This document shows, piece after piece, positions 19,679 through 54,043 of a DNA stretch of 64,000 nt. The notes beneath the pieces were generated by a model, which did no database searches, was not told the origin of the DNA, and worked only from the letters and a program-made list of their open reading frames with translations. A program made the position numbers and the translations under genes. The stretch comes from a phage: the sequence record PZ053912.1; one strand, written 5' to 3'. Every line of letters begins with the position of its first letter. Positions within the stretch are counted from its first letter, which is position 1.

Positions 19679-20007
19679 TTTACCGCCTTAACAATTTTCA
19701 AGTCAGCGAATTTTTTCTTACGTTGATTTTTCATACGACGGATAGTTTTTTCAGAGATTTCATGTTTCTGATAAGCTTTAGATTCAACACCAAATGCAGC
19801 AACGTCAAATTCAGAAAGAATATATTGTACTAGAATTTCGCGAATAGAATTACGTCCAATTTTCTGGTCGTGTTTTTGCATGATTTCATAAAGACGGAAT
19901 TCCCACGCGTCAAGAACTTGAGGAGTAACAATATTGCCGGATTCCAGAAGAGCAACAACTTTATCGAAAGCGAAAGAATTAACTACGTTTTTGATTTTAG
20001 TAGACAT
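19675..20007 (-). CDS. Hypothetical protein; start at MSTKIKN after GAGGAAAA
   Basis: ORF 19675..20046; the first 13 codons of the track ORF translate the promoter cassette. Confidence 0.45.
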   Translation of the reverse strand: MSTKIKNVVNSFAFDKVVALLESGNIVTPQVLDAWEFRLYEIMQKHDQKIGRNSIREILVQYILSEFDVAAFGVESKAYQKHEISEKTIRRMKNQRKKKFADLKIVKAVK

Positions 20008-20037
20008 ATTATTTTCCTCGGTTGTTTTATTATCCAA

Positions 20038-20066
20038 TGAGAGCATTATACTCTGCTCTCAAGAGT
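20038..20066 (-). promoter_or_regulatory. Early sigma70-type promoter (TGTACA-17-TATAAT) with inverted repeat GAGAGCA/TGCTCTC flanking the -10
   Basis: Seen directly; near-identical 47-nt copy at 49741-49788. Confidence 0.5.
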
Positions 20067-20073
20067 TTGTACA

Positions 20074-20313
20074 TTATTTCGTGATAAGATAATGTAAATA
20101 GTTTGCTTGACGAACACTGATATCAACACCCATATCAAAGATACCTTTATAGAACGGGTATTTGTTTTCAGTAGAATCTAGACTAAAAGCCTTTCCACCA
20201 CAACTAACGGTAATAGCATCAGTTAAAGTGTCATATACAAACTTAATAGTTGAGCCATTCACTACGACTTCAAGACGTTTTTTCGATGTAGTAATGTCTA
20301 ATTCTTGTTCCAT
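20074..20313 (-). CDS. Hypothetical protein
   Basis: 79 aa ORF. Confidence 0.45.
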   Translation of the reverse strand: MEQELDITTSKKRLEVVVNGSTIKFVYDTLTDAITVSCGGKAFSLDSTENKYPFYKGIFDMGVDISVRQANYLHYLITK

Positions 20314-20334
20314 GATATTTTCCTCATTTTAAGA

Positions 20335-20363
20335 CGATAGGAATATAATAACATGTCTTCCTA
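20335..20363 (-). promoter_or_regulatory. Early promoter-like element (TGTACA-17-TATTAT) with 9-bp arms CGATAGGAA/TTCCTATCG flanking the -10
   Basis: Seen directly. Confidence 0.4.
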
Positions 20364-20376
20364 TCGTTGTACATTA

Positions 20377-21016: not shown

Positions 21017-21265
21017 TCAGAGGTTGATTGATACAATGCGTTTGATAAAATTCACTTCACTTACTGAAAGGTCTTTAAGACCGATTGATTCTAAACGCTG
21101 AGTAAGCGTCAACATTGGGATATAGTCCCATTGTGTTTTAGACGTTTGATAAGTACGGACGCCATTAGCAATTTCAACATGCAAATCGGAAATGGTAATG
21201 AATATCAGACGTTCGTTGTTTACATTAAGAGTTAGAACAACTTTCTTTGAATCTAAACTAATCAT
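21017..21265 (-). CDS. Hypothetical protein; start at MISLDSK after GAGGAAAA
   Basis: ORF 21017..21385. Confidence 0.4.
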   Translation of the reverse strand: MISLDSKKVVLTLNVNNERLIFITISDLHVEIANGVRTYQTSKTQWDYIPMLTLTQRLESIGLKDLSVSEVNFIKRIVSINL

Positions 21266-21430
21266 TTTATTTTCCTCTATAGTAGATGGTTTAATCTTAA
21301 CACATCTATTGAGGATGTAAACTGTTTTATGAAAATATTTTCGATTTGAGAGGGGCACAAGGAGATAGTGAAGTGAAGATTCCAATGGATTATATTAGAA
21401 ATGAGATAAAGAAGACCAGGCGGCACCTGG

Positions 21431-27213: not shown

Positions 27214-28157
27214 TATAAAACCTCAATGGCATTTCGTAAACCATCAGCTTTTGCATTCAGAGCTTTTAATGATTTAGTTTGTTCTGCAATCTGGGCTTCG
27301 ACTTCTTTCAGGCGAGATTTGAGATATTCGCGTTCTTCTCTTAAGTTATCAACTTTTTCTGCTTTAGGCTCTTTAATAGGCTTATACTCGTTATGGTTCT
27401 TCAACTTAATTTGAATGCGAGAACTGTATAACATTGAACCATTATCTTCGGTTTCATCATACATTTCTACCACGTCCATGATTCTTAACATCATGCGAAG
27501 TTTATAAGACAGCGAACGAATGGTTTTGTTGTGCTTATTAATTTCTTCGGCTTTCATGGTACCGAGATTACGTGAGTAGTAATAAGGAACCTGGATATCA
27601 ATTGATAATGATGCGGTACCATTACCTGTTGGTTTGAACACTGCAGTAACCCAATCTTTAGCATGAACTGTATTTGTACGATCATCGCCACCTGTGAATA
27701 ATTTACGTGAATGTTTAAAAAGCATATTCACTTGGTTATTGAATTCACAAGCAAATTTATCAGCAAATTTAGTTTCAGGAATGGTAGATAACCAATCAGC
27801 CAAATGAGTCTTTTTAACATCGTTAATAATAGTAAATTCAACTAAATCAGTTTTAGATGTCACAGATTTAATAAAGCTCGGCTTCATAAAGTTTTTAATG
27901 TTATCACGAGCTACAGTAGAAGATAATAAACGAGAACGTTTGAACCATTGAAGCAGTGTCCCTAATGAATGAGAATATGCATTCTGAGTATCTTTACAGA
28001 TATGATTTTCTTGGCCTGTGTATGTACCAAAATCGCGAAGAATACCACTTACTACAACTCGGTGTGGAACATCAAATCCTAATGAACCAGAAGCACGTTG
28101 GGCATGAACGTTAGCGATAAGACCTGCAAAATAATCAATGTAATGTGAACGTGTCAT
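27213..28157 (-). CDS. Hypothetical protein with C-terminal coiled coil
   Basis: 314 aa ORF. Confidence 0.55.
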   Translation of the reverse strand: MTRSHYIDYFAGLIANVHAQRASGSLGFDVPHRVVVSGILRDFGTYTGQENHICKDTQNAYSHSLGTLLQWFKRSRLLSSTVARDNIKNFMKPSFIKSVTSKTDLVEFTIINDVKKTHLADWLSTIPETKFADKFACEFNNQVNMLFKHSRKLFTGGDDRTNTVHAKDWVTAVFKPTGNGTASLSIDIQVPYYYSRNLGTMKAEEINKHNKTIRSLSYKLRMMLRIMDVVEMYDETEDNGSMLYSSRIQIKLKNHNEYKPIKEPKAEKVDNLREEREYLKSRLKEVEAQIAEQTKSLKALNAKADGLRNAIEVL

Positions 28158-28185
28158 AATATTTTCCTCTCGTTAAGATAGAAAG

Positions 28186-28214
28186 ATTATACTCCAACCA
28201 TCCTTGGTTGTAAA
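28186..28214 (-). promoter_or_regulatory. Early promoter (TTTACA-17-TATAAT) with hairpin CAACCA-AGGA-UGGUUG inside the spacer
   Basis: Seen directly; same architecture at 29182-29210 and 50056-50084. Confidence 0.5.
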
Positions 28215-28219
28215 CTGAT

Positions 28220-29155
28220 TTATGATTTTAATGCATTCATTGCGTTAAAAAGTTTAGAGTACTGCAACTGGAGCTTGGTAACTACTTGTTGAGCATCACG
28301 AAGCTTAGCTTGTGCTTTGTCAAGTTCAACAGACAGTTGGTCCACAGTGGCTTTGATTTGATTATAATAGTAATCTTCGGCAGGAAGAAGACCGTTAGAG
28401 ATTTCCAGTTTAGTCGACGGTGAAGTGTATATAGATGGAGCAGTAAAATATGCACCTTGAACTTCAGCATTGCCAATTGGGGTTGTAGTAATTGACGCTT
28501 CGAACGTTGCATTTTCCTTTTTAAGATTTTTATAATATTCAGAGTCTTTGTGCCACCATGGCGCAGGAACCTTTTTACCAATAGATACACGAGCCTGGAT
28601 AGCGATATGGCCCTTATTCTTGATAGGGTTGATAATATTAAGCTCACGAGAATAAATTGCTTTAATCTGGTGAATATTATCACCTAACACTTCCAACGCT
28701 TGGTGGAATACACGAGCAACGTTATCATTCTTAGGTTTATACGTAAGAGTGAACTCGTTCTCACTGATAACCATGATTTCTAACTTATCGTAAGTATATT
28801 TCAAATGTTTCATGTTAATTGCTTGAGGACGAATACGAGAAGCAATGGCCATCAGATTGTTAAGGTTATTTCTGAACTGTTTAGCAAAATATTGTCCTTC
28901 ACCGCCAATACAAAAATTACGAAGTTTCTGTTTGGCTAATAAACGGCTGAACTCACCATTTTTAATGAACTCTTTAACGGGTGTGTTAGTAACGCATTCA
29001 AATTGAGTAAACTTACGAGAATTAATCCCATAATATGAACAGATTTCCTCAATCTCTTCAGGAGTCTTTACAGGCATACGGATAGGATTAGGTCCTGGGG
29101 TATATGCGTTCGAGGTAAATTCTTTGATAAGTTCTCTACGTGTAATAGAAGCCAT
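28220..29155 (-). CDS. Hypothetical protein
   Basis: 311 aa ORF. Confidence 0.55.
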   Translation of the reverse strand: MASITRRELIKEFTSNAYTPGPNPIRMPVKTPEEIEEICSYYGINSRKFTQFECVTNTPVKEFIKNGEFSRLLAKQKLRNFCIGGEGQYFAKQFRNNLNNLMAIASRIRPQAINMKHLKYTYDKLEIMVISENEFTLTYKPKNDNVARVFHQALEVLGDNIHQIKAIYSRELNIINPIKNKGHIAIQARVSIGKKVPAPWWHKDSEYYKNLKKENATFEASITTTPIGNAEVQGAYFTAPSIYTSPSTKLEISNGLLPAEDYYYNQIKATVDQLSVELDKAQAKLRDAQQVVTKLQLQYSKLFNAMNALKS

Positions 29156-29181
29156 TTTATATTCCTCATGTTGAAAAATTT

Positions 29182-29210
29182 ATTATACTCCAACCATCCT
29201 TGGTTGTACA
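29182..29210 (-). promoter_or_regulatory. Early promoter (TGTACA-17-TATAAT) with the CAACCA-AGGA-UGGUUG spacer hairpin
   Basis: Seen directly. Confidence 0.5.
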
Positions 29211-30268: not shown

Positions 30269-30796
30269 TTATGCGTGAACCGTCTTTAAACGTTCTTCAA
30301 ATTTCCGAAGAGTACTAATACGTTCTGCTTTCTGTTTTGTATAGTTTGCAATACGTTCTGAAGTGAGAGCGTATCGTTCGTTTACTGTTTCTTTCATGAA
30401 GTCAGGGATTTCACGAGAAGCTTTAATTTCATCAAACTTATCGAGTACTGCCTGGTCTTCAGCAATTAAATTTTCGTACATCTCGATATCTTTCTTGATG
30501 AAGTCGATATCTTCCTGGGTTACTTTGGATAAACGAGATGCTTTATCCTTTTTGTACTGCTCGTTAGTTTCACGAGACCAGAATAATGTACGTTTTTTGT
30601 TAGTGTTTTTGTAGACTTCCACAATTCCAACTGAATCGATGATAACAATCCAATTCCAGCGAGATTTGAAAATCTGACCTCCGTCCACGGTAATCTCGTT
30701 ACCATAAGCAACGTCATTAAAGAACTTGCTTTGTGCTTCAGATTTAAATTTACCGTCGTTATAATTTACCAGGTTGAAAATATCTTTAGCGTTCAT
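30269..30796 (-). CDS. Hypothetical protein
   Basis: 175 aa ORF. Confidence 0.55.
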   Translation of the reverse strand: MNAKDIFNLVNYNDGKFKSEAQSKFFNDVAYGNEITVDGGQIFKSRWNWIVIIDSVGIVEVYKNTNKKRTLFWSRETNEQYKKDKASRLSKVTQEDIDFIKKDIEMYENLIAEDQAVLDKFDEIKASREIPDFMKETVNERYALTSERIANYTKQKAERISTLRKFEERLKTVHA

Positions 30797-30823
30797 GTTT
30801 TACCTCCAGTAGTTGATAGGTCT

Positions 30824-30852
30824 ATAATAACATAAACATAGACCTTGTAAAC
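30824..30852 (-). promoter_or_regulatory. Early promoter (GTTTAC-17-TATTAT) with AGGTCTAT/ATAGACCT arms around the -10
   Basis: Seen directly. Confidence 0.45.
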
Positions 30853-31280: not shown

Positions 31281-32261
31281 TTATTTCAGTAAAGTTACTT
31301 CAGAGATTTCCTCCCAACCATCTTTATCAGTTGAAATAAAATCTGCTACGTAAAGAGCCGTACGTAATGATACATTGCGAAGACGAGATACGTTAGCCTT
31401 CATCCAGGACAATGCTTTATACGTTTCTGCATCCGTCAGACCACGTTTCTGCATCATGTCAGTAGATAATATTACATCTTCAACTCGAACCATAATCTCT
31501 TCATTAGAGTGTACTCCAAGGTCGAGATACACTGAACGAGATACTAAAGCTTGAAGGTGTGGGGCAAGTTTCGAACCGCGTTCTAACTCTTTATCGATAT
31601 CAACGTTAGTAATGAAAACGATAGTACCTTCAAACTCAAATTCTTTATCAATACCCTTATCATCGAGATAAGATGACGCAGTGCTCCAACAAACTTTGCG
31701 TTTATCTCCAGTATCTAATGCTGCTTTAAGAAGGTTCAAGATGTCCATATCTGAGAATACGTCAACGTCGTCGATTAAGAGAACGCTGTCTGCATCACGG
31801 TTGAGCCAAAGTTGTTCGTAAAGGCCGATACCAGAGATTTTACCATTAATGCTTTTGTATTTGATGAAACCATTATCATTAGCGTTATTAAGTGCTTTAT
31901 CCAGAGAATACGTCTTACCAATACCGGCTGCACCTGAAATAATGAGTGAACGAATTTTGCCATCAATAATGCCATTCGTCATCATGTTCATTACTTTAAA
32001 GCGTTTGTTGATACGAGTTTTCATATCTTCAGTGCTTTCAACAACTGCAACTGGTGACGTCTCAACTCCTTCCATTACGATGTCTGATTTGAAGACCCAT
32101 ACTCCACGTTCAGAACCATCAATCATAACGAAAATTTTGCCATCACCTAAGTGGGAACATTCAGGATTAAGCTTTGCCGGGAACCAGGTCTTTGTGGCAA
32201 CATAAGAACCAGAGATTTCGTTATTACGATAGATACCTTTTTTGATTTGAACGTTGAACAT
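31281..32261 (-). CDS. P-loop ATPase (AAA-like), hypothetical
   Basis: Walker A ISGAAGIGKT and Walker B-like LLIDDVD; start moved to MFNVQIK after GAGGAGAA. Confidence 0.6.
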   Translation of the reverse strand: MFNVQIKKGIYRNNEISGSYVATKTWFPAKLNPECSHLGDGKIFVMIDGSERGVWVFKSDIVMEGVETSPVAVVESTEDMKTRINKRFKVMNMMTNGIIDGKIRSLIISGAAGIGKTYSLDKALNNANDNGFIKYKSINGKISGIGLYEQLWLNRDADSVLLIDDVDVFSDMDILNLLKAALDTGDKRKVCWSTASSYLDDKGIDKEFEFEGTIVFITNVDIDKELERGSKLAPHLQALVSRSVYLDLGVHSNEEIMVRVEDVILSTDMMQKRGLTDAETYKALSWMKANVSRLRNVSLRTALYVADFISTDKDGWEEISEVTLLK

Positions 32262-32289
32262 TTTATTCTCCTCTTGTTTTGATAGGTCT

Positions 32290-32318
32290 ATAATAACATA
32301 TCCTAAAAGCATGTACAC
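32290..32318 (-). promoter_or_regulatory. Early promoter-like element (TGTACA-16/17-TATTAT)
   Basis: Seen directly; lies inside the N-terminal extension of track ORF 31281..32318. Confidence 0.4.
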
Positions 32319-32347
32319 TACTTTTTTAAAAATATTTTAACCCCATA

Positions 32348-32365
32348 AAGGGCCCGAAGGCCCTT
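32348..32365 (-). terminator. Hairpin AAGGGCC-UUCG-GGCCCUU directly after the stop of the 328-aa gene
   Basis: Seen directly; weak U-rich tail. Confidence 0.45.
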
Positions 32366-34378: not shown

Positions 34379-34645
34379 TTAAAGTTTCGACAAAATTCAC
34401 CAAAGCGTTCTGGCAAGCATCAACCTGATTTCTATAAAATTAAATAAGATCCATCAATTTATTAGCTTGTTCACGGGTCATTTTACCATACTCGTTTCAA
34501 TAAGATTCACTATGCCGTTTACCATGTTATAAGTAAACATCGGATAATTGTATTGTACTACAACATAAGCGATAAGCAAAAGTTTCATTTTGTTCTCCAT
34601 TTGTTTTGGTAGGATTACTATATCATAGTCCTACCAAGACGTAAA

Positions 34646-35038: not shown

Positions 35039-35043
35039 TAACG

Positions 35044-35095
35044 TTCTCCTCTAGTAAGTAAGATCTACTATAACACAACCTGAGGAGAAGTAAAC
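35044..35095 (-). promoter_or_regulatory. Early promoter (GTTTAC-17-TATAGT) enclosed by 8-bp arms that pair the SD (GAGGAGAA) with an upstream anti-SD
   Basis: Seen directly; arms at 35044-35051 and 35082-35089, -10 at 35067-35072. Confidence 0.5.
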
Positions 35096-38833: not shown

Positions 38834-39292
38834 CTAGATTTTAATCACTGCTTTAGAAGCTTTTCCTGGTAGTCGTTTACTGTTAATAATAGCCATTCTG
38901 CATTGAAGAGTCTTCATTTTGAATGCTGGATTTTCGCGACAAACTGTAAGTCCTAACCAAAGATTTCCATCAGTTATTTCTAAACGGCCTGGACGATATT
39001 CGACACCTTCGACAAAATCTTCATCAACATCTGGACGTGCCGGCATTGATAAAAATTCTGCAACTTCTTTAACATGATTTTTTACTTTACGAAATAATTC
39101 AAAAACGTAATTCTCATCTATTTCTCTCTGGATGGCACGATCTAAGAGATGTTGAGAATACTTGATATGAAAGCCTGGTAGTCCAAGAGACTTTGCAGCA
39201 TCTTTTATACCGGCATTTATTTTGCGGAACTCCGTTTCAAAGATTCGACGGAGTTTATTACGGCGGATAAAAACGTCAGAATTGATAGTCAT
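38834..39292 (-). CDS. regB: RegB sequence-specific endoribonuclease
   Basis: MTINSDVFIRRNKLRR...HIKYSQHLLDRAIQREIDENYVFELF...YRPGRLEITDGNLWLG...CRMAIINSKRLPGKASKAVIK matches recalled T4 RegB. Confidence 0.9.
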   Translation of the reverse strand: MTINSDVFIRRNKLRRIFETEFRKINAGIKDAAKSLGLPGFHIKYSQHLLDRAIQREIDENYVFELFRKVKNHVKEVAEFLSMPARPDVDEDFVEGVEYRPGRLEITDGNLWLGLTVCRENPAFKMKTLQCRMAIINSKRLPGKASKAVIKI

Positions 39293-39300
39293 TTTTGATT

Positions 39301-39350
39301 TCTCCTCTAGTTGACAGGTCTATAGTAACACATCTAGAGGAGAAGTAAAC
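39301..39350 (-). promoter_or_regulatory. regB early promoter (GTTTAC-17-TACTAT) enclosed in a 10-bp hairpin pairing the regB SD with an anti-SD in the promoter spacer
   Basis: Arms UCUCCUCUAG (39334-39343) and CUAGAGGAGA (39301-39310); -10 at 39322-39327. Confidence 0.55.
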
Positions 39351-41263: not shown

Positions 41264-41535
41264 TTTGTTCTCTCTAAGTTTGGGCCATTCCATGGCACAT
41301 GAATTGTCCATTTCTGTATTTACCCATTACCGCACTTGGGCTCGACCTTATTACAGGTTGGCGGGAATCCCTCATAGAATCATGAGGTCCAGCTTGTTCC
41401 CATGTTATTTGAATGTAAATATTTTTGCCTTAATACTTATACCAGTGTGGCTTCATTAAAATTTTTTCATCGAGTCATTTTACCTCTCCAAGTAATTATG
41501 ATTATACTATCACAATTCTAGGAGAAAGTAAACTG
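41264..41535 (-). other. 272-nt untranslated leader with an early promoter-like element near 41500-41530, a 3-codon uORF and internal hairpins
   Basis: No ORF longer than 8 codons on the minus strand; hairpin CCUCAU-GAUUCU-AUGAGG. Confidence 0.35.
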
Positions 41536-41838
41536 TTATTTACCTTTAATTACTTTAGCTGCTTCGATAGCCGCTTGCTGAAGGTCATCCATAGACATAC
41601 CGAATTTAGAAGCAAAGTTATCAATTTTCTTTTCAACAGCATTCAAAGGCTTGGCCTGTTTACCTTCATTAGCGCCAGGAAGAGCGAGAATACGCTCTTT
41701 GTCAATATAAAGGCTTACAAGTTTCTTACGGTCTTTATCGGACAAATCGTGAAATGAATGGGCCTTTTTATTTATAGCGGCTTCTAATTTACCTGCACTC
41801 ACTCGCGCTTCAGTAATAAATTCTTGATATGTTTTCAT
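41536..41838 (-). CDS. ipIII: Internal head protein IPIII-like, with N-terminal capsid-targeting sequence
   Basis: MKTYQEFITEARVSAGKLEAAINKKAHSFHDL...; the leader MKTYQEFI-x-E is the recalled T4 CTS. Confidence 0.8.
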   Translation of the reverse strand: MKTYQEFITEARVSAGKLEAAINKKAHSFHDLSDKDRKKLVSLYIDKERILALPGANEGKQAKPLNAVEKKIDNFASKFGMSMDDLQQAAIEAAKVIKGK

Positions 41839-41929: not shown

Positions 41930-42343
41930 TTAGTAAATTGATTTACCATAGTATTTGTACCAAGTAGGACGTTGAGCAATTTTTTCATCTAAACGAGCTT
42001 GACTTATCGCAATGGACGCTTCGGTCGGGACATAATTATTACGAAATTCGGCAGGGATGTCGGAAATATCTTGGACAGTCGTGTCCTTGATTTTGAAACC
42101 ACGTTTCAAGCATTCAGCGATTAGCTCGATTTGACGTAAACGTAAAAATTCGAGTTTGTCGTAAAAGAATGTTACATGACCTGTGCCTAAGATAAATGTC
42201 GGGGAGATTTTAAAATCCTTTACACGTTTACCGTTTTGAACATGTTTACGGACTGCACCAAATACGCGTGGTAATTCACGATACTCAGCCATAAGATGTT
42301 GGTCGGTCAGTTCAGAAACAAGTGTTAAATTGATACGAGTCAT
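41930..42343 (-). CDS. denV: Endonuclease V (pyrimidine-dimer DNA glycosylase) DenV
   Basis: [34 protein letters not shown]... matches recalled T4 DenV; start at internal ATG after GGAGGAA. Confidence 0.9.
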
Positions 42344-42346
42344 AAT

Positions 42347-42400
42347 TTCCTCCAAGTAGTTGATGAATGTATAGTATCAAAACCCTTGGAGGAAGTAAAC
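42347..42400 (-). promoter_or_regulatory. denV early promoter (-10 TACTAT at 42371-42376) enclosed in a 10-bp hairpin pairing the denV SD with an anti-SD at the -35/spacer
   Basis: Arms ttcctccaag (42347-42356) and cttggaggaa (42385-42394) on the plus strand. Confidence 0.5.
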
Positions 42401-45062: not shown

Positions 45063-45368
45063 TTATTTTCCTCGACATTCTTTAACAAAATTTTCTAAAT
45101 CTGTTGATTCAATAGCTTTTTTACGAGCTTCAGCGTGTTCTTCTTCAGTTAATCTACGTTTAAACTTGACCCAAACATTATGGTCGAAACCTGTTGTCGC
45201 GTATAATAACAGAGCACCAACGAATAACAAAAACGGTGATAAAAATACACAACCAGGAACACCGTCCATGCCATAGGCCTTTTGTAATACTGCAACAGAA
45301 AGCACAGCATAAAAAGGTGATGTAAGTATCGTTAAAAGGCCAATTCGGTTGGTTTCTGTTAATTTCAT
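45063..45368 (-). CDS. Membrane protein, hypothetical
   Basis: 101 aa; two hydrophobic spans. Confidence 0.45.
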   Translation of the reverse strand: MKLTETNRIGLLTILTSPFYAVLSVAVLQKAYGMDGVPGCVFLSPFLLFVGALLLYATTGFDHNVWVKFKRRLTEEEHAEARKKAIESTDLENFVKECRGK

Positions 45369-45396
45369 ATTATTCTCCTCATGTTTTAATAGGACT

Positions 45397-45425
45397 ACTA
45401 TAACATAGCCCTATCAATTTGTACA
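45397..45425 (-). promoter_or_regulatory. Early promoter (TGTACA-17-TATAGT) with arms ATAGGGCUA/UAGUCCUAU flanking the -10
   Basis: Seen directly; same cassette at 46950-46978 and 53685-53713. Confidence 0.5.
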
Positions 45426-45426
45426 C

Positions 45427-45627
45427 TTATTTTGACATTTCTTCGATATCACGACGATACCCGTCACGAACTTCACGAAGAGCTTCAAGGCCACACATAG
45501 GCTCGATGCCAGTAATGTGAACTTGATTAATCTGATACTCTACATCTTCTAACTGAGCGAAAATGTAACGACGTTCTGCTGCACAGCCAGGTTTAGCTTT
45601 ACCGAAACGTTTATTCAAAGTAGTCAT
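45427..45627 (-). CDS. Small hypothetical protein
   Basis: ORF 45427..45648 trimmed to MTTLNKRF. Confidence 0.4.
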   Translation of the reverse strand: MTTLNKRFGKAKPGCAAERRYIFAQLEDVEYQINQVHITGIEPMCGLEALREVRDGYRRDIEEMSK

Positions 45628-45664
45628 TTTGTATCTCCATTCACTCATTTGTTTTGATAGGTCT

Positions 45665-45693
45665 ATAGTATCAACAACTACAGACCTTGTAAA
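45665..45693 (-). promoter_or_regulatory. Early promoter (TTTACA-17-TACTAT) with arms GGUCUGUAG/CUAUAGACC
   Basis: Seen directly. Confidence 0.45.
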
Positions 45694-46691: not shown

Positions 46692-46943
46692 TTAAATTTC
46701 ACGACATGCGGTATCATATTCATCCCAGAGGTCGTCATGTGAAGCCTCTACCAATGGAACGATTGTACCATTTATATCTTCATTATAAGGGCAAATTGTA
46801 CAATGTGCATCTTCGAATCGGATGCCTTTGTGTTCAGATTTTTTATAACGCATATCGAATATCTTTGCAAACTTTTCACGAGTAATGGTTTTAGCAACCA
46901 CTTCGGTTCCAACACTTTCGTAATAAATCATTGTGGACTCCAT
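46692..46943 (-). CDS. Hypothetical protein
   Basis: 83 aa ORF. Confidence 0.45.
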   Translation of the reverse strand: MESTMIYYESVGTEVVAKTITREKFAKIFDMRYKKSEHKGIRFEDAHCTICPYNEDINGTIVPLVEASHDDLWDEYDTACREI

Positions 46944-46949
46944 TTAATT

Positions 46950-46978
46950 TGATAGGACTACTATAACATAGCCCTATC
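46950..46978 (-). promoter_or_regulatory. Early promoter (TTTACA-17-TATAGT) with arms ATAGGGCUA/UAGUCCUAU
   Basis: Seen directly. Confidence 0.5.
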
Positions 46979-46993
46979 TTGTTGTAAACTGTT

Positions 46994-49104: not shown

Positions 49105-49132
49105 AAGGAGGACCGGAGTCCTCCGTATTATT

Positions 49133-49726
49133 TTATTTCAAAGAGTTAATATATTCTTGTACATCAGCAGAAGTGGTTTCGACACCGGCTGGAGTACCAT
49201 TGAACGTTTCAACACGAGTCAGAGTGTCTTCGATATCAACCTTAGTCAGTGCAGCGATTTCAATTACATCATCGGCCGTAGAGATACCAAGGGCATTGGC
49301 TGCTCGAGTTTCACGAATGTATTCGAGTTTGATTGCCAGATTCTGACGAGCATCGTCAAGTTCAACCACCTTACGAGCAATTTCAATTCGCATAGCAGCG
49401 TACCCGTCAGCTTTTGTATTAAGTTGTTCGGCAGTTCGACGATACAGAAGACCAAGCTTAGCATGCATGGTAACATCTTGTCCTTCAGCCAGGAGCTTAC
49501 GAATTTCACGTTCCTTAGAAGCGGCTTGCTTATTCTTTTCAATAACAAGTTCGCGAATACGTTTTTCTTCATTAATAGATTTAACAGAAGCCGTTTTTAG
49601 TTCTTTGATTTGGGTAATCAACTTATCTGCAGCTGCGTTATACTGTTCTTCGACAGTCAGATTTTTAGCCATAGCAGTACCCAGTTTAGTGCGGATGAAT
49701 TCAACAAGTTTCTTCAGTGTGTTCAT
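49133..49726 (-). CDS. Coiled-coil hypothetical protein; start at [10 protein letters not shown]
   Basis: ORF 49133..49771; the first 15 codons of the track ORF translate the promoter cassette. Confidence 0.5.
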
Positions 49727-49759
49727 ATTATTACCTTTCAATTGGTGGTGTTTATTATC

Positions 49760-49788
49760 CAATGAGAGCATTATACTCTGCTCTCAAG
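49760..49788 (-). promoter_or_regulatory. Early promoter (TTTACA-17-TATAAT) with the GAGAGCA/UGCUCUC arms; copy of the cassette at 20038-20066
   Basis: Seen directly. Confidence 0.5.
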
Positions 49789-49798
49789 AGTTTGTAAA

Positions 49799-50026
49799 TT
49801 ATTTTTTAATCAAATTGACATAAAACTCGGCGTCTTCCGGGTGCATGCCTTCGCAGTATTCTTCAACCATGAACTTCTTAACGGCTTCATAAGGACCACT
49901 CAGATTAAGCTCAGTTGTCCAGAACTTGGAATCTTGGACTGAATCGATACGAACTTCAGGGTGACGGTTGCGAATAACTTCTTCGGTGTATTCATAATCA
50001 ACGACATCAATACTAACTGTAGCCAT
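49799..50026 (-). CDS. Hypothetical protein
   Basis: 75 aa ORF. Confidence 0.45.
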   Translation of the reverse strand: MATVSIDVVDYEYTEEVIRNRHPEVRIDSVQDSKFWTTELNLSGPYEAVKKFMVEEYCEGMHPEDAEFYVNLIKK

Positions 50027-50055
50027 TTTGTTTCTCCTCTGTAGTTGATAAGTCT

Positions 50056-50084
50056 ATAGTATCACCATCCTTGGTGCTTGTACA
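50056..50084 (-). promoter_or_regulatory. Early promoter (TGTACA-17-TACTAT) with spacer hairpin CACCA-AGGA-UGGUG
   Basis: Seen directly. Confidence 0.45.
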
Positions 50085-50697: not shown

Positions 50698-51324
50698 TTA
50701 CTTACGAGTTTTTGCATACTGAGCAGCGTCAGCAGCCAAACGACCTGCCTGACGAAGTTTTTCTTTAATCGCATCGTGAAGTGGTTGAGTATACTTCAAA
50801 CCTTCGATAGTCAAATAAAGACGATAAAGGTCTGGGGTATCAAGGTTGTTGATATGTTGGCCATTACGAAGACTGTTGAATTCACGAACGAGTGAAGATG
50901 TATCGGATTCAATATCACGAACAAGCGAAGATAGTTGTTTATATTTTTTTTCCAGGCTAGAAGTATCAAACTTAAGAGCAGGAGCTTTAGGAGTTGCTTT
51001 TACTTCCGGCTTAGGCTCAGGTTTTGCTATTGCTTTAGGGGTCGCAGGCTTAGGAACGGTAGGAGCAGGTTTTACTTTAGGCGAACCCGATTTAGCAGAA
51101 ACACCGCCACTAACAATATCTTTGAATGCTTTAGAAGCTCTGTAATATTCTTTTTGGCTGGAAGTGTCGATACCATACATGGCTTGAACGTTTTTGAAAA
51201 ACTCTGTACTAGTTTTTGTACCAGAAATAGCATCGTAAGCAGCTTGCCATTTCTCTTTTGTCATACGTACACCGGCTTCGGTGATTACTTCCGTTTCGGC
51301 TAAAAATTCATTAAAAGTATACAT
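50698..51324 (-). CDS. Candidate internal (injected) head protein: CTS-like N-terminus plus Pro/Lys/Ala-rich linker
   Basis: 208 aa; MYTFNEFLAETEV resembles the MKTYQEFIAE capsid-targeting leader; late promoter TATAAATA upstream; T4 ipI sits at this locus. Confidence 0.5.
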   Translation of the reverse strand: MYTFNEFLAETEVITEAGVRMTKEKWQAAYDAISGTKTSTEFFKNVQAMYGIDTSSQKEYYRASKAFKDIVSGGVSAKSGSPKVKPAPTVPKPATPKAIAKPEPKPEVKATPKAPALKFDTSSLEKKYKQLSSLVRDIESDTSSLVREFNSLRNGQHINNLDTPDLYRLYLTIEGLKYTQPLHDAIKEKLRQAGRLAADAAQYAKTRK

Positions 51325-52055: not shown

Positions 52056-52132
<77 letters not shown>

Positions 52133-52136
52133 ATGC

Positions 52137-52210
52137 CTCGAATTGGTGACCCTGGCTGGTTTCGATCCAGCTACCTATCAGTTATGAGCTGACAGCTCTC
52201 CCATTGAGCT
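52137..52210 (-). tRNA. tRNA with CAU anticodon (Met, or Ile if lysidine-modified)
   Basis: Cloverleaf drawn by hand: acceptor GGCCCUG/CAGGGUC, D-arm GCUC/GAGC, anticodon loop CUCAUAA, T-arm GCUGG-AUCGAAA-CCAGC, encoded CCA. Confidence 0.8.
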
Positions 52211-52297
52211 ACAGGGCCTAAATAACTTTCTATTATGAAAGGCACTTTAGAGTACCTTTGGTAATAGAGGGTATGAATTAATAATAACACATAATTC

Positions 52298-53108: not shown

Positions 53109-53485
53109 GAATGTTCCACCATTTCAAAGGTATGAGCATCAACAATATGATACCAGTCGAAATTTTCTTCAGCGTTCTTATATATTTCACGAAGAGCTTC
53201 GACAGTTTTACCTTTAGCGTAAAGGTCGTCGATACCACCATAAGGATAGTATTCATAACCAGCAAACAGAAGGAAATTAATAGTTTCCGTAGGGGCTGGA
53301 TGCAGTGTACCATTGTCATCGACTACTTCAAAGAACATATAACCGGGTGATTTAGATTTAATCCAGTGCCATGCTTCTGTGGCTGAATCAAACGGTTCAC
53401 GTAACAAACGACAATCAGGGTCTTTAGAAGGATTAGCTTCAAAATCAGAATATACATGATATTTCATTTTACTCACCTTTTGCAA
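53105..53485 (-). CDS. Hypothetical protein
   Basis: 126 aa ORF. Confidence 0.45.
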   Translation of the reverse strand: MQKVSKMKYHVYSDFEANPSKDPDCRLLREPFDSATEAWHWIKSKSPGYMFFEVVDDNGTLHPAPTETINFLLFAGYEYYPYGGIDDLYAKGKTVEALREIYKNAEENFDWYHIVDAHTFEMVEHS

Positions 53486-53654
53486 TTTTATCCATAACGA
53501 TGGCGATTAAGCCGATTAGAAATGCCACTACCAATGAGATAGAGTTTTCGGTTGTCGTCAGTAGTCCACAAATGAATCCTACAAACATCGAAAAACTAAA
53601 AGCCATTGAAGCAATTACTACAGCAACATTACGAATCAGTTCAGCGCGTTTCAT
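53469..53654 (-). CDS. Small membrane protein
   Basis: 61 aa; hydrophobic. Confidence 0.4.
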   Translation of the reverse strand: MKRAELIRNVAVVIASMAFSFSMFVGFICGLLTTTENSISLVVAFLIGLIAIVMDKIAKGE

Positions 53655-53684
53655 TTTATTATCCTCTCATGTTTTGATAGGACT

Positions 53685-53713
53685 ACTATAACATAGTCCT
53701 ATCATCATGTAAA
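53685..53713 (-). promoter_or_regulatory. Early promoter (TTTACA-17-TATAGT) with perfect 9-bp arms AUAGGACUA/UAGUCCUAU flanking the -10
   Basis: Seen directly; arms at plus 53677-53685 and 53694-53702. Confidence 0.5.
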
Positions 53714-53716
53714 CTA

Positions 53717-53980
53717 TTAAATACCAGCTTCGCGTTTAACATAATCGACGTAAGCTTGGATAGCTTTCTTGCTGGTAATTTTTACCTGACCACGACCATT
53801 GCCTTCTTTAGAGTTTTTCTTAACAACTACATTACCATCTTTAACACCCCATACATGGACGTAAGTACCGATGTTTCGGTCGTAGAACATTGCATGGTCG
53901 TTGTTGTAAGAGAATGATTCGTAGTTCTCTGTCAGAGTAGAAGATTGAGATTCGGCGATAAATTCTTTATAGGTTTTCAT
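53717..53980 (-). CDS. Internal head protein IPI-like, with capsid-targeting sequence
   Basis: 87 aa; MKTYKEFIAESQS is a near-consensus CTS; small and basic as expected for an injected internal protein. Confidence 0.65.
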   Translation of the reverse strand: MKTYKEFIAESQSSTLTENYESFSYNNDHAMFYDRNIGTYVHVWGVKDGNVVVKKNSKEGNGRGQVKITSKKAIQAYVDYVKREAGI

Positions 53981-54014
53981 TTTATTTCCTTGAGGCTGTT
54001 TATTTGATAGGATG

Positions 54015-54043
54015 ATAGTAACACACCATCATCCTTATGTAAA
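54015..54043 (-). promoter_or_regulatory. Early promoter (TTTACA-17-TACTAT) with arms GGAUGAU/AUCAUCC flanking the -10
   Basis: Seen directly. Confidence 0.45.

Follow-up and report, generated by a model that had tools for sequence, protein, structure and literature searches.

The closest described counterparts of the elements analysed here are the PeSLs of T4-like phages. In Arbiol 2010, the PeSLs of RB49 and phi1 combine an AT-rich region and a sigma-70 promoter with a stem-loop, an SD, and an ATG, and the stem-loops lie mostly between the -35 and -10 elements or overlap the -10; G-T pairs, terminator-like activity, and recombination between copies are also noted there (PMC2839356). Comeau 2014 extended PeSLs to T4/PST (TTTACW-N17-TAYWAT, with AGNA-loop-TCNT stems) and to KVP40/nt-1 and proposed that they occur in probably all T4-like phages (PMC4122927). 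A second comparison is provided by the T4 genes e, soc, 49, and I-TevI, which have SD-sequestering hairpins with an internal promoter: long transcripts bury the SD/AUG, and a promoter within or after the 5' arm yields a shorter transcript that is translated (PMC3014915). Secondary structure is also known to shield GGAG from RegB, to which the majority of middle transcripts are resistant (PMC3014915). The palindromes go unmentioned in reviews that cover early transcription in T4 and the promoters of RB69.

The window, that is, the whole stretch of 64,000 nt of PZ053912.1 that was analysed, is from a Mosigvirus, an RB69-like T4-type phage. With 4-kb and 25-kb queries, Mosigvirus genomes (RB69, HX01, JS09, PhAPEC2, and others) matched it at 94–98% identity and T4 at ~81%. 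The region studied is the counterpart of T4 nrdC-tk-vs-regB-denV-e-ipI-57-1. Two tRNA genes lie at 52067–52218 on the minus strand, where relatives have tRNA-Arg/Met (and Asn); these two tRNAs were the only Rfam matches above the gathering threshold in the window, and no Rfam family matched the promoter hairpins described below.

Promoters were called blind to hairpins, as T[GT]TACN, 16–17 nt, and TANNNT with, further downstream, an SD and the ATG of an ORF that is 30 aa or longer. On the minus strand, 25 early promoters were obtained in this way; they have the form TTTACA/TGTACA-16/17-TAnnnT, with A-rich sequence upstream. In every listed cassette, the SD and ATG of an ORF of at least 30 aa are located 26–60 nt from the -10. 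The cassettes are concentrated in the nrdC-tk-vs-e-ipI region, which is variable among relatives, and the intergenic gaps of ~60–70 bp are occupied by promoter and TIR elements. Directly 3' of the -10, in the discriminator and initial transcribed region, most of the minus-strand early promoters carry the motif AGNCCTATCAA(A/C)(A/T)AC (for example at 53672–53684), which is common to Mosigvirus, Dhakavirus, and many T4 promoters regardless of hairpin class.

The window cassettes are further examples of the described PeSLs. They share the intergenic layout of an early promoter with a 17-nt spacer, a stem-loop, an SD, and a start codon, and probably also its repetition in variable early regions; their AGGA...TCCT arms are compatible with the AGNA-loop-TCNT stems given for T4/PST (PMC4122927). 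The occurrence of identical cassettes before unrelated genes in the window also fits the proposed PeSL shuffling. Because of this match to published cassettes (Arbiol 2010; Comeau 2014), the suggestion in the initial annotation that the palindromes were new for T4 early promoters fails. There are differences, however. The RB69 group is outside the scope of both papers, and the stem-loop is read there as a terminator or attenuator and a recombination site (PMC2839356, PMC4122927). The legend of the PST/T4 figure places the stems “just upstream” of the promoter (PMC4122927), whereas in the window, and in T4 itself, one arm is inside the spacer. The text of the two papers contains no arm covariation between orthologues, no anti-SD class, and no start site separating the arms (PMC2839356, PMC4122927). 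SD occlusion in read-through RNA at early promoters, together with the covariation evidence, may be new; our literature search, with older T4 papers outside its range, found no paper on SD occlusion by an early-promoter spacer.

The site at 53677–53713 is the promoter of a tRNA.4 homologue (61 aa, 53469–53654; six related loci in viral contigs), which lies directly downstream of ipI. Its cassette, like all those that follow, is on the minus strand (53654–53713). The -35 TTTACA (53708–53713) is followed by a spacer containing the 5' arm TGATAGGACTA (53694–53704) and by a TGn-extended -10, TATAGT (53685–53690); the 3' arm TAGTCCTATCA (53675–53685) begins at the last -10 base. Consensus spacing predicts +1 at the A at 53678, and the SD GAGAGGA (53662–53668) and the ATG (53652–53654) complete the cassette. 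From 53713 to 53675, the strand reads TTTACA tgaTGATAGGACTAtgt TATAGT AGTCCTATCA, with a spacer of 17 nt. The inverted repeat that had been annotated around this promoter is borne out as an 11-bp repeat with one arm in the spacer. The RNA folds at -20.6 kcal/mol (z = -4.6), and the antisense RNA folds at -17.9 kcal/mol. The unpaired probability of the SD is 0.61 in the read-through RNA and 0.87 in the promoter's own transcript, so the SD is not predicted to be sequestered at this site.

In ten of the 25 promoters, the spacer pairs over at least 7 contiguous Watson–Crick bp with the sequence that runs from the -10 to the ATG. Spacer shuffling, the comparison that the initial annotation had itself proposed, gave an expectation of 0.9 promoters with a maximum of 4–5, and the mean spacer-downstream duplex dG was -11.7 kcal/mol against -6.2 for the shuffles. 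The same excess was found in T4 (8/16 promoters with at least 7 bp; shuffle expectation 0.6), RB69 (9/23), two further Mosigviruses (PhAPEC2, 10/23; PECP20, 10/22), a Dhakavirus (6/16), and a Jiaodavirus (2/6), with the qualification that promoter sets of related genomes are not independent and some counts are inflated. A helix with dG <= -10 kcal/mol and its 5' arm in the spacer is present in ~15–17 of the 25 window promoters, far more than in the controls; the helices quoted here are limited to this threshold, and classing by MFE over-calls weak ones (dG > -7). About 8–10 of the 25 have no convincing helix, and the statement that the arms “always stay complementary” was overstated. Nine of the ten sites originally listed have the arms given for them. 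The tenth, listed at 32281 (-35 box 32317; 32261–32317), is a degenerate copy without a clean helix, in which pairing of TAGGATAT with ATAGACCTA needs a gap. Just upstream of the A-rich region of this promoter, a GC-rich hairpin and T-run (GCCTTCGGGCCCTTTATGGGG...) at 32330–32361 form a conventional terminator-then-promoter layout, at the one listed site with a degenerate palindrome.

Three positional classes of hairpin are found among the promoters, all with a 5' arm that precedes the predicted start site. In class i (~11 clear cases, including 53677–53713), the 3' arm is at the -10 end and discriminator. The ipI promoter, which is the site first listed at 54023 (-35 box at 54043), belongs here (53980–54043; arms AGGATGAT/ATCATCCT, T4 orthologue TGATGAGGTA/TACCTCATCA), as does the e.6 promoter (49726–49798; TGAGAGCA/TGCTCTCA), whose core is the same as that of a cassette at 20007–20073. 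One G.U pair is present in each of the cassettes at 46931–46988 (GATAGGGCTA/TAGTCCTATC) and 45627–45693 (AGGTCTGTAG/CTATAGACCT), and a G.U pair also occurs at 45368–45425 ((TTG)ATAGGGCTA/TAGTCCTAT(TAA)). The remaining members listed are the promoter of a 36-aa ORF (34588–34645; TTGGTAGGA/TCCTACCAA, compensatory relative to ATAGG/CCTAT), the nrdC.8 promoter (30796–30851; AGGTCTAT/ATAGACCT), and a cassette at 20313–20373 (ACGATAGGAA/TTCCTATCGT).

A 47-nt cassette, ACAAACTCTTGAGAGCAGAGTATAATGCTCTCATTGGATAATAAA, found within 20007–20085 and 49726–49810, precedes unrelated ORFs (110 aa and an e.6-like 197 aa, respectively), and the identity of the 20073 and 49798 copies hints that, within the Mosigvirus lineage, cassettes have evolved in concert or been exchanged. 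At ~41440–41545, an SD and a three-codon ORF, ATGACTCGATGA, whose first codons match the denV start (ATGACTCGT), come after a cassette that resembles the T4 ipII/ipIII promoters; this cassette has the appearance of a degraded PeSL or of a scar left by recombination.

In class ii, an anti-Shine-Dalgarno sequence forms the spacer arm, and the downstream gene's SD provides the 3' arm. Four of the 25 promoters are clear cases. The spacer arm TTCCTCCAAG of the denV promoter (42343–42399) pairs with the SD-containing CTTGGAGGAA, the arm TTCTCCTCTAG of the regB promoter (39292–39349) with CTAGAGGAGAA (SD), and the arm TTCTCCTC at 35039–35094 with GAGGAGAA (SD); at 21265–21321, an imperfect helix pairs TCCTC..TAGATG with CATCTA..GAGGA. 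Class iii is a small hairpin entirely within the spacer, ACCAAGGATGGTTGG, present at two promoters with -35 boxes at 29210 and 28214 (28157–29210) and as a weaker copy at 50084. Neither the SD-pairing class (denV, regB, and others) nor the intra-spacer class had been listed in the initial annotation. The in-spacer hairpins at 29181–29210, 28185–28214, and 50055–50084, and one in T4 near record position 50972 (L001), have a conserved, SD-like AAGGA loop, and the stem covaries, being of the CCAACC../..GGTTGG type in the window and CCACA/TGTGG in T4.

Partition-function folding gave an SD unpaired probability for the window denV of 0.12 in read-through RNA, 0.64 in its own transcript, and 0.51 with a shuffled spacer. 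The corresponding values for T4 regB were 0.08, 0.78, and 0.35, and those for the 35094 promoter were 0.18 in read-through RNA and 0.70 in its own transcript. The drop in SD accessibility in read-through RNA is confined to class ii. SD occlusion as a general explanation was rejected: across all promoters, mean SD accessibility in read-through RNA was 0.50 against 0.49 with shuffled spacers, and occlusion therefore accounts for class ii only. The class ii cassettes (denV, regB, 35094, and 21321) have exactly the geometry of e, soc, 49, and I-TevI. The difference is that the internal promoter of the latter is late (gp55, TATAAATA) and delays translation until late, whereas that of the window cassettes is an early sigma-70 promoter. 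By these folding predictions, an SD paired in the longer and free in the shorter transcript is a feature of class ii, but not of class i.

We consider it probable, with moderate confidence, that these PeSL-type cassettes form their hairpin in read-through RNA only, with anti-SD gating in class ii and punctuation in class i. In each, a strong sigma-70 early promoter (A-rich upstream sequence, TTTACA, 16–17 nt, TGn-TAnnnT) is packed into a ~60–70-bp intergenic gap, with one hairpin arm encoded in the promoter spacer, which would otherwise be sequence-free. As the gaps are filled by promoter and TIR elements, the spacer would be the obvious free sequence for an arm. The start site is predicted, from consensus spacing, ~7 nt after the -10; a search for T4 TSS or Term-seq data sets yielded none. 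The 5' arm, lying upstream of it, would be absent from the promoter's own transcript, and the hairpin could therefore form only in RNA reading through from upstream promoters. In class ii, the anti-SD arm would bury the ribosome-binding site and the RegB GGAG site in read-through RNA, while the promoter-proximal transcript would be open, and essentially all translation of the gene would depend on its own early promoter. In classes i and iii, the helix would stand just upstream of the translation initiation region with the SD uncovered, most likely punctuating polycistronic RNA as an attenuator or as a 3'-end/decay barrier for the upstream cistron. For class i, it is our conjecture that the helix, standing where the upstream cistron ends, serves as punctuation, as an attenuator, or as a barrier to decay; this agrees with the insulating effect (lowered lacZ) measured for an RB49 PeSL stem-loop (PMC2839356).

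The PeSL authors read the stem-loops as terminators or attenuators of upstream units, at which incoming RNA polymerase halts, with each gene expressed from its own promoter. All hairpin classes of the window precede the predicted start site and stand where the upstream cistron ends, a position in which an intrinsic terminator also has its stem-loop, and the RB49 stem-loop reduced downstream lacZ about as much as rrnB T1 (PMC2839356). Nevertheless, we regard this reading as unlikely for the window cassettes. No U-run follows any of the promoter hairpins, which have A-rich tails (AUCAAAAC); their stems, rich in AT and low in GC, enclose large loops (8–18 nt), unlike those of intrinsic terminators; and termination leaves the anti-SD arms of class ii unexplained. 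A terminator scan of the window returned 20 terminator-like sites, none of which was a promoter hairpin. Identity with canonical intrinsic terminators was rejected on the grounds of the absent U-run, the A-rich tails, and the scan. Just downstream of the e.6-like gene, a GC-rich hairpin at 49107–49124, GGAGGACTCCGGTCCTCC, has T-runs on both strands and looks like a bidirectional terminator, unlike the promoter hairpins.

The palindromes around the early promoters are real, and compensatory changes mark their evolution. Orthologous promoters of relatives have them too, with covarying arms: between genera, the helix is kept while both arms change, with G.U intermediates. The e.6 promoter arms are GAGAGCA/TGCTCTC in the window and GAGGACA/TGTCCTC in Dhakavirus, those of denV are TTCCTCCAAG/CTTGGAGGAA and, in an orthologue, TCTCCTGTAG/CTACAGGAGA, and those of the 36-aa ORF are TTGGTAGGA/TCCTACCAA and, in T4, AGTTGACAAGATTA/TAATCTTGTCAACT. 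The nrdC.8 promoter is of class i in Mosigvirus and of class ii in T4 and Dhakavirus. The arms do not keep one register from promoter to promoter: the sum of the paired positions is, for example, 47 at 53713 but 42 at 54043. One structure of fixed register common to all promoters was therefore rejected, and statistical covariation was assessed on the register of the 53677–53713 helix only. The alignment comprised 17 distinct promoters of the same register, in which both sides changed in 5 of the 12 pairs and 90% of the cells were paired. None of 500 shuffles reached the observed covariation score, and sliding the partner by 1–3 columns lowered pairing to 25–59%. A compensatory path can be followed from ATAGG/CCTAT through GTAGG/CCTAT (G.U) to GTAGG/CCTAC.

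The regB promoter was also followed in metagenomes, at 18 loci encoding RegB relatives of 55–100% identity with 12 distinct upstream sequences. All 12 sequences form a hairpin that is stable, at -19 to -26 kcal/mol, and whose 5' arm falls within the promoter; the arm sequences are unrelated to each other, and the SD is buried in most. In two lineages, a class i helix is nested in a class ii helix, and one has class i only. In two of the regB relatives (L021 and L022), the -10 region and discriminator (GAGTTATGATTATCC) pair with the SD and AUG (GGAGATAATCATGACT), a fourth way of burying the read-through RNA's ribosome-binding site.

Selection on a helix in read-through RNA would make the arms covary. 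The symmetry could also act at the DNA level, as cruciforms or single-stranded hairpins that promote cassette recombination or template switching (PeSL shuffling) or modulate promoter melting, which we consider improbable. The 47-nt cassette is identical at 20073 and 49798 before unrelated genes, while the Dhakavirus orthologues differ from each other, and the degraded cassette at 41532 points in the same direction, as do the PeSL mini-circles and crossovers inside the loop that have been reported (PMC2839356). The DNA of the 53677–53713 site folds at -9.5 kcal/mol (z = -3.4). For recombination, however, shared promoter sequence suffices, and covarying arms are not needed. Moreover, stems of 7–11 bp with 8–18-nt loops are poor candidates for cruciform extrusion.

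The two strands also differ in ways that selection on the sense RNA predicts and a symmetric role of duplex DNA does not. Interior mismatches of the extended stems are mainly G:T on the sense strand (16, against 5 A:C), and all one-sided changes in the 53677–53713 helix alignment are G.U on that strand. Across 72 non-redundant promoter-TIR units, folding is better for the sense than for the antisense strand (z -2.57 and -1.90, respectively; Wilcoxon p = 3e-4), although the antisense has more G+U. Perfect palindromes fold on both strands, and the difference between sense and antisense is modest. These asymmetries support RNA, rather than DNA, as the selected molecule without being decisive, given their moderate size and the phylogenetic relatedness of the promoter sets. 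Of the two structures originally proposed, a hairpin in read-through RNA is favored by the compensatory G.U path, the sense-strand folding, and the position of the 5' arm upstream of the predicted start, and the cruciform is the weaker.

A role in binding a dimeric phage or host protein, for instance a factor shutting off early promoters, would give the symmetry another meaning, since this shut-off is mechanistically unexplained (PMC3014915; PMC2988021). This is very improbable, as arm sequences, registers, and loop lengths vary freely between promoters and orthologues, with no half-site in common beyond the promoter consensus; the covariation of the arms instead favors a structural role over a shared protein-binding site, as the initial annotation had argued. 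Finally, that the pairing is chance or a by-product of a self-complementary promoter consensus can practically be dismissed: ATAGG...CCTAT and CTAT..ATAG elements are common to several promoters, and pairing the spacer of one promoter with the downstream sequence of another reaches at least 7 bp in 9.5% of cases, above the shuffle level, but self-pairing reaches it in 40% (permutation test, P<5e-5), the arms covary in orthologues, and among 86 promoters, at least 7 bp was found for 41% of spacers, 2% of equal-length segments just upstream of the -35, and 0% of coding segments.

Our analysis thus shows, by statistics and by comparison across four genera (Tequatrovirus, Mosigvirus, Dhakavirus, and Jiaodavirus), that the stems are under selection, as seen in arm changes that compensate each other and in G.U intermediates. 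We propose only tentatively that T-even-type early promoters routinely double as translational gates, with the spacer serving as an anti-SD or other 5' arm. If such gating operates, only transcripts begun at a gene's own early promoter would be open to translation and to RegB; on read-through (delayed-early or middle) RNA, the gene would stay silent and resist RegB. The late-only gating at e, soc, 49, and I-TevI would then have an “early-only” mirror image, maintained through compensatory evolution in at least four genera. Such gating could contribute to the sharp drop in some early proteins and to the resistance of middle transcripts to RegB. Should the anti-SD subclass behave as predicted, translation of many early genes, regB and denV among them, would be confined to transcripts from their own promoter, which would bear on the timing of early protein synthesis and on the escape of some GGAG sites from RegB. 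In phage engineering, insertion or deletion of a cassette would then alter which transcripts are translatable.
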